A stretch of 64,000 bases of DNA, from the sequence record PV933157.1, one strand, 5' to 3'. The stretch is from Escherichia phage 24-32N. The notes beneath the pieces are model-generated. The model was given only the letters and a program-made list of their open reading frames with translations. It was not told where the DNA came from and ran no database searches. Shown one piece after another: positions 4,390 through 4,668 of this stretch. Both the position numbers and the translations under genes were made by a program. Within the stretch, counting starts at the first letter, position 1. Each line of letters starts with the position of its first letter.

Positions 4390-4668
4390 GTGAAGAAACT
4401 AACTCAACCCCACATAGGAACCATCATGGAATCTTTAGCAGCAATCCTTGTTATGTTATTTGTATTAGCTGTATACCTTATCCCTACTATCATTGCTTTT
4501 TCACGAGGCCATGCCTCTAAGTGGGGCATTGGTGTGCTTAATATCGTATTAGGCTGGTCTTTAGTATTCTGGGTAGTAGCACTGATTTGGTCACTGTCCA
4601 ACAAAGGTCAGAACCAAGTTACAAATGTAACTGTTGTTCAAACCAATGGTGGCAGTAAAGCAGAGTAA
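4390..4668 (+). CDS. Superinfection immunity (Imm-like) inner-membrane protein
   Basis: Two TM helices; motif PTIIAFSRGHASKWGIGVLNIVLGWSLVFWVVALIWSL resembles the T4 Imm-type superinfection immunity family. Confidence 0.5.
   Translation: MKKLTQPHIGTIMESLAAILVMLFVLAVYLIPTIIAFSRGHASKWGIGVLNIVLGWSLVFWVVALIWSLSNKGQNQVTNVTVVQTNGGSKAE

Follow-up and report, generated by a model that had tools for sequence, protein, structure and literature searches.

A PF14373-family imm gene in the middle region of an N4-like Gamaleyavirus and its possible role in superinfection exclusion

Locus and coding sequence of imm

The window, the whole 64,000-nucleotide stretch of Escherichia phage 24-32N (PV933157.1) that was analysed, carries a small ORF at 4390..4668 (+), which the ORF listing of the window opens at a GTG and translates into 92 aa. 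The genes around it lie on the same strand in the order ATPase, VWA protein, dCTP deaminase, gp27-like ORF, imm, gp28-like ORF, ThyX, rIIA and rIIB (Table 1). The original prediction had placed an Imm-like superinfection immunity gene in a middle module among replication genes, and this is right by position, with the ORF in the interval from dCTP deaminase to ThyX, upstream of rIIA/rIIB and the DNA polymerase. The imm locus is the N4 middle region, and in N4-like phages the lysis genes belong to the late region. The window phage is a Gamaleyavirus, G7C-like and N4-like (Schitoviridae, Enquatrovirinae). The first 12 kb of the window are 91-94% identical to IME11, St11Ph5, Bp4, ECBP1 and other members of this genus, and the window has an ORF for a 3456-aa virion RNA polymerase on the minus strand together with an N4-type gene order.

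Two further features of the window were noted in passing. The mechanical start of the VWA/DUF2201 ORF (2368-3627, +) overlaps the ATPase gene by 77 nt; the protein is annotated with 390-393 aa in relatives, and its true start is probably near 2452. At 26442-26599 (+) there are two adjacent tRNA genes, one of them tRNA-Ile(AAT), and the second has an unusual anticodon loop to which ARAGORN assigns no anticodon and a lower Rfam score of 40 bits.

Table 1. Features of the imm locus and of the ejection genes discussed in the text (window coordinates)
Feature	Coordinates	Strand	Evidence or remark
dCTP deaminase	3627..4133	+	
gp27-like ORF	4143..4352	+	
Hairpin directly upstream of imm, 13-bp stem and 3-nt loop	4362..4389	+	dG -20.2 kcal/mol, z -3.5
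12-codon upstream extension from GTG, probably untranslated	4390..4425	+	No Shine-Dalgarno sequence; GTG at hairpin foot
Shine-Dalgarno AGGA for ATG 4426	4416..4419	+	Read from sequence
imm coding sequence, 80 aa and stop, most likely the true gene	4426..4668	+	ATG with Shine-Dalgarno sequence, homologue starts, PhAPEC7, PF14373, dN/dS
Imm_superinfect (PF14373) domain, residues 16-57 of 80 aa, including R27 and W44	4471..4596	+	Pfam match, alignments
Hydrophilic Q/N/T/V-rich C-terminal tail, predicted disordered	4597..4665	+	pLDDT 54-62, no secondary structure
Intrinsic terminator after imm, 8-bp stem and T6	4741..4769	+	Common to the N4 gp27-gp28 intergenic region
gp28-like ORF	4784..5173	+	
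ThyX	5616..6560	+	
gp51 tunnel protein	39242..41197		
gp53 homologue (tail plug)	41667..44309	-	
gp53 strongly hydrophobic region, ~100 residues, aa 662-761	42027..42326	-	Several TM-like segments

The hairpin upstream of imm is conserved in PhAPEC7 and in L006 and L008, two diverged N4-like contigs; one G-C pair has undergone a compensatory flip to C-G, and TATTTG follows the hairpin. It may act as a weak terminator, in processing or in stability. In PhAPEC7, a terminator is annotated at the position equivalent to that of the intrinsic terminator following imm. Sigma-70 promoter-like sites in the region 3500..5500 numbered three, against 5.4 expected in shuffles, and none of them directly precedes imm.

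While the original prediction of a 92-aa protein corresponds to an ORF that is present, this length is probably 12 residues too long, and a start at ATG 4426 gives 80 aa. The AGGA box lies 6 nt upstream of this ATG, and GTG 4390 is located at the 3' foot of the 13-bp hairpin. In L006 and L008, GGG replaces the GTG, while the ATG is kept together with a GGAG box at the equivalent place. All homologues found in the first database search (89/89; lengths 44-86 aa) start with ME, and PhAPEC7 gp28 is annotated from the ATG equivalent to 4426. Based on the missing Shine-Dalgarno sequence, the GGG in relatives and the ME starts, we dropped the GTG start in favour of ATG 4426, and the true Imm protein is almost certainly the 80-aa form. 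The dN/dS of the imm core against relatives was 0.12-0.25 (Nei-Gojobori), values that indicate purifying selection on the gene.

Family membership, conserved residues and predicted structure

The ORF matched the Pfam family PF14373 (Imm_superinfect) with 61.4 bits, where the cut-off is 27.9, over model positions 1-42 of 42, and the 80-aa form scored 61.9 bits. The same model gave 58.2 bits for the T4 imm product, taken from NC_000866. The match to PHROG 1039, 'immunity to superinfection', came at 1.1e-30, and a direct BLASTP comparison of the window protein with T4 Imm gave 30% identity over 61 residues (E 4e-10). Scans of NCBIfam and PADLOC gave no relevant model, and there was no holin or antiholin family among the Pfam or PHROG matches. 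The Imm-family resemblance that had been predicted is thus borne out by PF14373, by PHROG 1039, by the T4 Imm alignment and by the annotated, near-identical proteins of other Gamaleyaviruses. The Pfam profile search had been set beforehand as a possible refutation, and it matched the superinfection immunity family, so the prediction was not refuted. Going by sequence, the window gene is homologous to T4 imm and a member of the PF14373 family. That it could instead be a chance ORF or a pseudogene is suggested by its small size and nothing beyond, and this explanation, whose remaining probability is close to nil, is refuted because the Pfam score of 61 bits is more than twice the gathering score, the Shine-Dalgarno sequence and the start codon are conserved, dN/dS is 0.12-0.25, and the imm cassette is bounded by its own terminator.

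We aligned the Imm proteins of seven phages, namely the window phage, the two diverged N4-like contigs, the Acinetobacter myovirus WCHABP12, the Klebsiella T-even-type phage JD18, the Salmonella siphovirus LSPA1 and T4. Across this set of podovirus, myovirus and siphovirus proteins, Tyr17, Pro20, Arg27, Ile35, Trp44, Trp49 and Trp55 were invariant, and a leucine replaces Trp44 in two metagenomic variants. Arg27 and Trp44 align with Arg33 and Trp50 of T4 Imm, respectively, and the R33A and W50A mutants of T4 Imm are reported to show reduced exclusion (preprint 10.64898/2026.03.06.709160). The JD18 protein is 44% identical to that of the window. As JD18 imm (NC_028686 11276-11482) is located between the DNA polymerase and gene 42, which is the position of imm in T4, it is a positional orthologue of T4 imm.

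The sequence contains the motif exactly as quoted in the original prediction (PTIIAFSRGHASKWGIGVLNIVLGWSLVFWVVALIWSL), which also described a protein with two TMs. By hydropathy, there are indeed two hydrophobic stretches, at residues 2-23 and 36-55 (80-aa numbering), with a basic loop, RGHASK, in between; the AlphaFold2 model, on the other hand, splits each of them into two short helices. This model, built on a 45-sequence alignment with a mean pLDDT of 84 and a pTM of 0.64, has helices at 2-17, 19-26, 32-42 and 46-57, followed by disorder over residues 58-80. Because the model breaks 32-57 into the helices 32-42 and 46-57, the second stretch possibly forms a helical hairpin instead of a single membrane span. 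The N-terminus is without positive charge, and the basic RGHASK sits between the hydrophobic stretches. These charges lend indirect support to the presumed inner-membrane location with an N-out topology, in which the N-terminus would be periplasmic. T4 Imm has the same layout of two hydrophobic stretches, a basic loop and a hydrophilic tail. Its structure is described as an N-terminal helix and a conserved hydrophobic helical core (preprint 10.64898/2026.03.06.709160), and the predicted fold of the window protein appears to match this description.

In a Foldseek search of the model against BFVD, 6/8 matches, including the top four, were annotated as superinfection immunity (prob 1.00, TM 0.47-0.62, E 2e-3 or worse); such weak E-values are expected for a helical protein of 80 aa. 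A sequence search of the PDB with the family profile found no relative with a solved structure. Matches in the PDB to a designed repeat protein and to PsaM were spurious. Among near-identical Gamaleyaviruses (homologues P0019, P0064 and P0065), variants of the C-terminal tail give an 80-aa form, an 86-aa form and a truncated 67-aa form of the protein. Because it is polymorphic among phages that are otherwise so close, the tail seems to be dispensable or fast-evolving.

Distribution of imm among N4-like and other phages

The 80-aa form is 100% identical to an unannotated ORF of phage PE007, and proteins with 93-98% identity are found in PhAPEC7, IME11, Bp4, St11Ph5, EC1-UPM, pSb-1 and others in RefSeq and GenBank, where they are labelled 'immunity to superinfection', 'putative membrane immunity protein' or 'superinfection immunity protein'. 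The G7C 'membrane immunity protein' (YP_004782154), PhAPEC7 gp28 and the proteins of IME11, Bp4, St11Ph5 and pSb-1 are encoded at the same locus and are orthologues; the Imm proteins of other Gamaleyaviruses differ from that of the window by minor variants of the C-terminal tail only. The identification of the window gene as imm is therefore already known from the databases, and the annotation itself adds nothing, as G7C-like phages already carry this name for the gene. More diverged N4-like genomes from metagenomes, with Imm proteins of 59-68% identity, hold the gene in the same slot between the gp27-like and gp28-like ORFs. Because of this shared slot, imm is taken as an old resident of the N4-like lineage and not a recent moron.

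No Imm homologue was found in the whole N4 genome with phmmer --max, where the best E-value among 1020 six-frame ORFs was 0.07, and the annotators of PhAPEC7 likewise remarked on the absence of imm from N4. Thus, imm is not present throughout the subfamily. The ORFs flanking imm are homologous to N4 gp27 and gp28, and when the window was aligned with the N4 gp27-gp28 intergenic region, the terminator and the sequence preceding it were shared, such that the hairpin and terminator at window 4675-4769 (+) match N4 (NC_008720) at about 13040-13140. The extra DNA compared with N4 amounts to ~320 bp only and consists of the upstream hairpin, the ribosome-binding site and imm. Because the downstream hairpin and terminator are common to N4, the imm cassette (about 4353-4672) can be read from the alignment as a clean presence/absence difference between Gamaleyavirus and N4. 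N4 does have a gene, gp18 (NC_008720 7668-7982), annotated 'superinfection exclusion, similar to P22 gp17', which belongs to a family distinct from Imm.

Outside the N4-like phages, the family is very widespread. An exhaustive HMMER scan (E <= 0.001) put it at 8222 clusters at 50% identity; many of these proteins measure 100-350 aa and have extra regions. In the phage collection, 970 records carry a match. The sampled carriers other than N4-like phages were all long-tailed, namely T-even-type Straboviridae, Obolenskvirus and Guernseyvirinae (Jerseyvirus, Kagunavirus), where the description of carriers as mostly long-tailed refers to sampled records whose taxonomy was fetched or whose type is stated in the name. 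Many carriers are Mycobacterium or Gordonia phages, which we take to be siphoviruses. The closest relatives outside the N4-like phages are the Imm proteins of myoviruses, with 52-54% identity in Obolenskvirus and 44% in Klebsiella T4-like phages.

The family is so large, with many longer multi-domain proteins, that its one characterised member, T4 Imm, is a thin basis for the transfer of function. The size of the family and the extra regions of its longer members would fit an explanation in which PF14373 is a generic small membrane domain, and the window protein has an unrelated function such as modulating a host membrane protein or a transporter. However, the phage proteins resemble T4 Imm in size and architecture and have the residues that were tested functionally in it. 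Many virulent phages, of different morphotypes, carry the gene, which fits a role of phage against phage. We regard the unrelated function as quite improbable.

Proposed function, possible targets and comparison with known systems

T4 Imm, a 9.3-kDa protein of the inner membrane, blocks genome translocation and has been reported to co-purify with the helical-bundle domain of the gp29 tape measure protein, with a cryo-EM map of the bound complex (preprint 10.64898/2026.03.06.709160). By analogy with T4 Imm, we consider it fairly likely that the window protein is an injection-blocking exclusion protein. The gene would be transcribed with the middle genes for replication and nucleotide metabolism, with presumed expression in the middle phase, and the protein, like T4 Imm, would accumulate in the infected cell's cytoplasmic membrane. 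At this site it would bind a hydrophobic, membrane-inserting part of the DNA-delivery apparatus of an incoming phage and so stop the later-arriving genome from crossing the cytoplasmic membrane. In the literature, we found no experimental report of an exclusion phenotype for Gamaleyaviruses, N4-like phages or Imm homologues outside T4, and for N4 no superinfection exclusion system has been characterised (PMC12642591).

The reported partner of T4 Imm is a tape measure protein, whereas the window protein is carried by a short-tailed N4-like phage that lacks one: among the six-frame ORFs of the window, phmmer --max found no protein like the tape measure protein gp29 of T4 (best E 0.3). This lowers the probability that the window protein has the same target as T4 Imm, and not that of its family membership. 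An exclusion protein of this phage would have to act on N4-type ejection proteins, on long-tailed competitors, or on both. A block on long-tailed competitors would follow the mechanism reported for T4. In an explanation confined to such competitors, Imm would bind the T4-type helical bundle of tape measure proteins of T-even-like myoviruses and small siphoviruses on the same enterobacterial hosts and would not block Gamaleyaviruses at all. Binding to a tape measure protein is the sole mechanism reported for the family, the residues implicated in it are conserved, the nearest relatives outside the N4-like phages are myovirus proteins, and the window phage itself lacks a tape measure protein. 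However, the phages on which T4 Imm is said to act are the same or closely related ones, and a gene that is fixed and vertically inherited within a single podovirus lineage fits self-exclusion at least equally well. An action on competitors only is somewhat doubtful.

A block directed at its own kind would, with no tape measure protein in the phage, have to act on the N4-type ejection machinery. N4-like phages deliver their DNA with the ejection proteins gp50, gp51 and gp52 and the plug gp53, where gp52 forms an outer-membrane complex, gp51 is a periplasmic tunnel with hydrophobic ends, the N-terminal domain of gp50 and the C-terminus of gp51 are proposed to form an inner-membrane complex, and the gp53 plug has a hydrophobic knot in the tail lumen (PMC13434306). 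The window encodes a gp53 homologue, in which residues 662-761 are strongly hydrophobic and correspond in position to the 'hydrophobic knot' of N4 gp53, and we suggest this region as a candidate membrane-inserting element. A simple 19-residue hydropathy scan found no strongly hydrophobic region in gp51 or gp52 of the window. The gp53 plug, the gp51 tunnel and the gp50 N-terminal domain would be the candidates for a self-directed block. As a tentative proposal, Imm may exclude its own kind by binding a hydrophobic element of this machinery, such as the gp53 knot, the gp51 C-terminus or the gp50 N-terminal domain. If this were true, the Imm fold would recognise a general feature of proteins that form inner-membrane channels and not specifically tape measure proteins, and a self-directed Imm would fill the place of the missing exclusion component in N4-like phages and their lysis inhibition.

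Lysis inhibition is also the basis of another explanation, in which Imm mainly protects the membrane from the damage of secondary adsorption or passes a superinfection signal into lysis inhibition and does not act in exclusion as such. The lysis-inhibition period of T4 imm mutants is shortened, and a role of Imm in limiting secondary traumatisation has been proposed (review PMC6832632). Lysis inhibition also occurs in N4-like phages, which have rIIA and rIIB genes, and the identification of an exclusion system in N4 is expected to clarify the onset of lysis inhibition (PMC12642591). However, N4 itself, where lysis inhibition was described, is without imm, the window protein has no holin or antiholin profile matches, and its gene is far from the lysis cassette of the late region. 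A role in the membrane or in lysis timing is unlikely, and we regard it as a weaker alternative to the exclusion readings.

If the 2026 report on T4 holds, the conservation of an Imm under selection in a phage that has no tape measure protein raises the question of what this family recognises. It is also a question whether Imm acts against its own phage type only or against competitors too, and whether the ejectosomes of podoviruses can be blocked by Imm. These questions bear on the design of phage cocktails, in which Gamaleyaviruses are used alongside T-even phages and small siphoviruses.

T4 also has Spackle (Sp), and no homologue of it was found when a secreted ORF of the window phage was compared with it. 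This 109-aa ORF at 1028..1357 (+) has an N-terminus resembling a signal peptide (MKTLLKGIAIAALIALAPNAQA) and belongs to PHROG 11132 of unknown function; its product is possibly a periplasmic protein. As a Spackle partner this ORF was rejected, having no similarity to T4 Sp.

The genomic setting of imm is comparable in the phages considered here. T4 imm (NC_000866 26373-26624) adjoins gene 42, and window imm stands between dCTP deaminase and ThyX, in both cases among early or middle genes. In T4, JD18 and the window phage alike, imm adjoins genes of pyrimidine-nucleotide metabolism, which are gene 42 for dCMP hydroxymethylase in T4 and JD18 and the genes for dCTP deaminase and ThyX in the window phage. 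This proximity may simply reflect shared early or middle expression.

Among known systems, T4 Imm is the nearest to the window protein, being of the same Pfam family and similar size, with 30% identity over the core and with Arg33 and Trp50 conserved. The mechanistic analogues named for T4 Imm are small inner-membrane proteins that keep a pore-forming helical domain from opening a channel (preprint 10.64898/2026.03.06.709160), and the likeness of these channel-blocking proteins to the window protein is by analogy only. SieA of P22 is the only studied precedent for an exclusion block on podoviruses (PMC10883804); it is expressed from the prophage, and we liken it to the window protein as a functional analogue only, with no claim of a relationship between the two.
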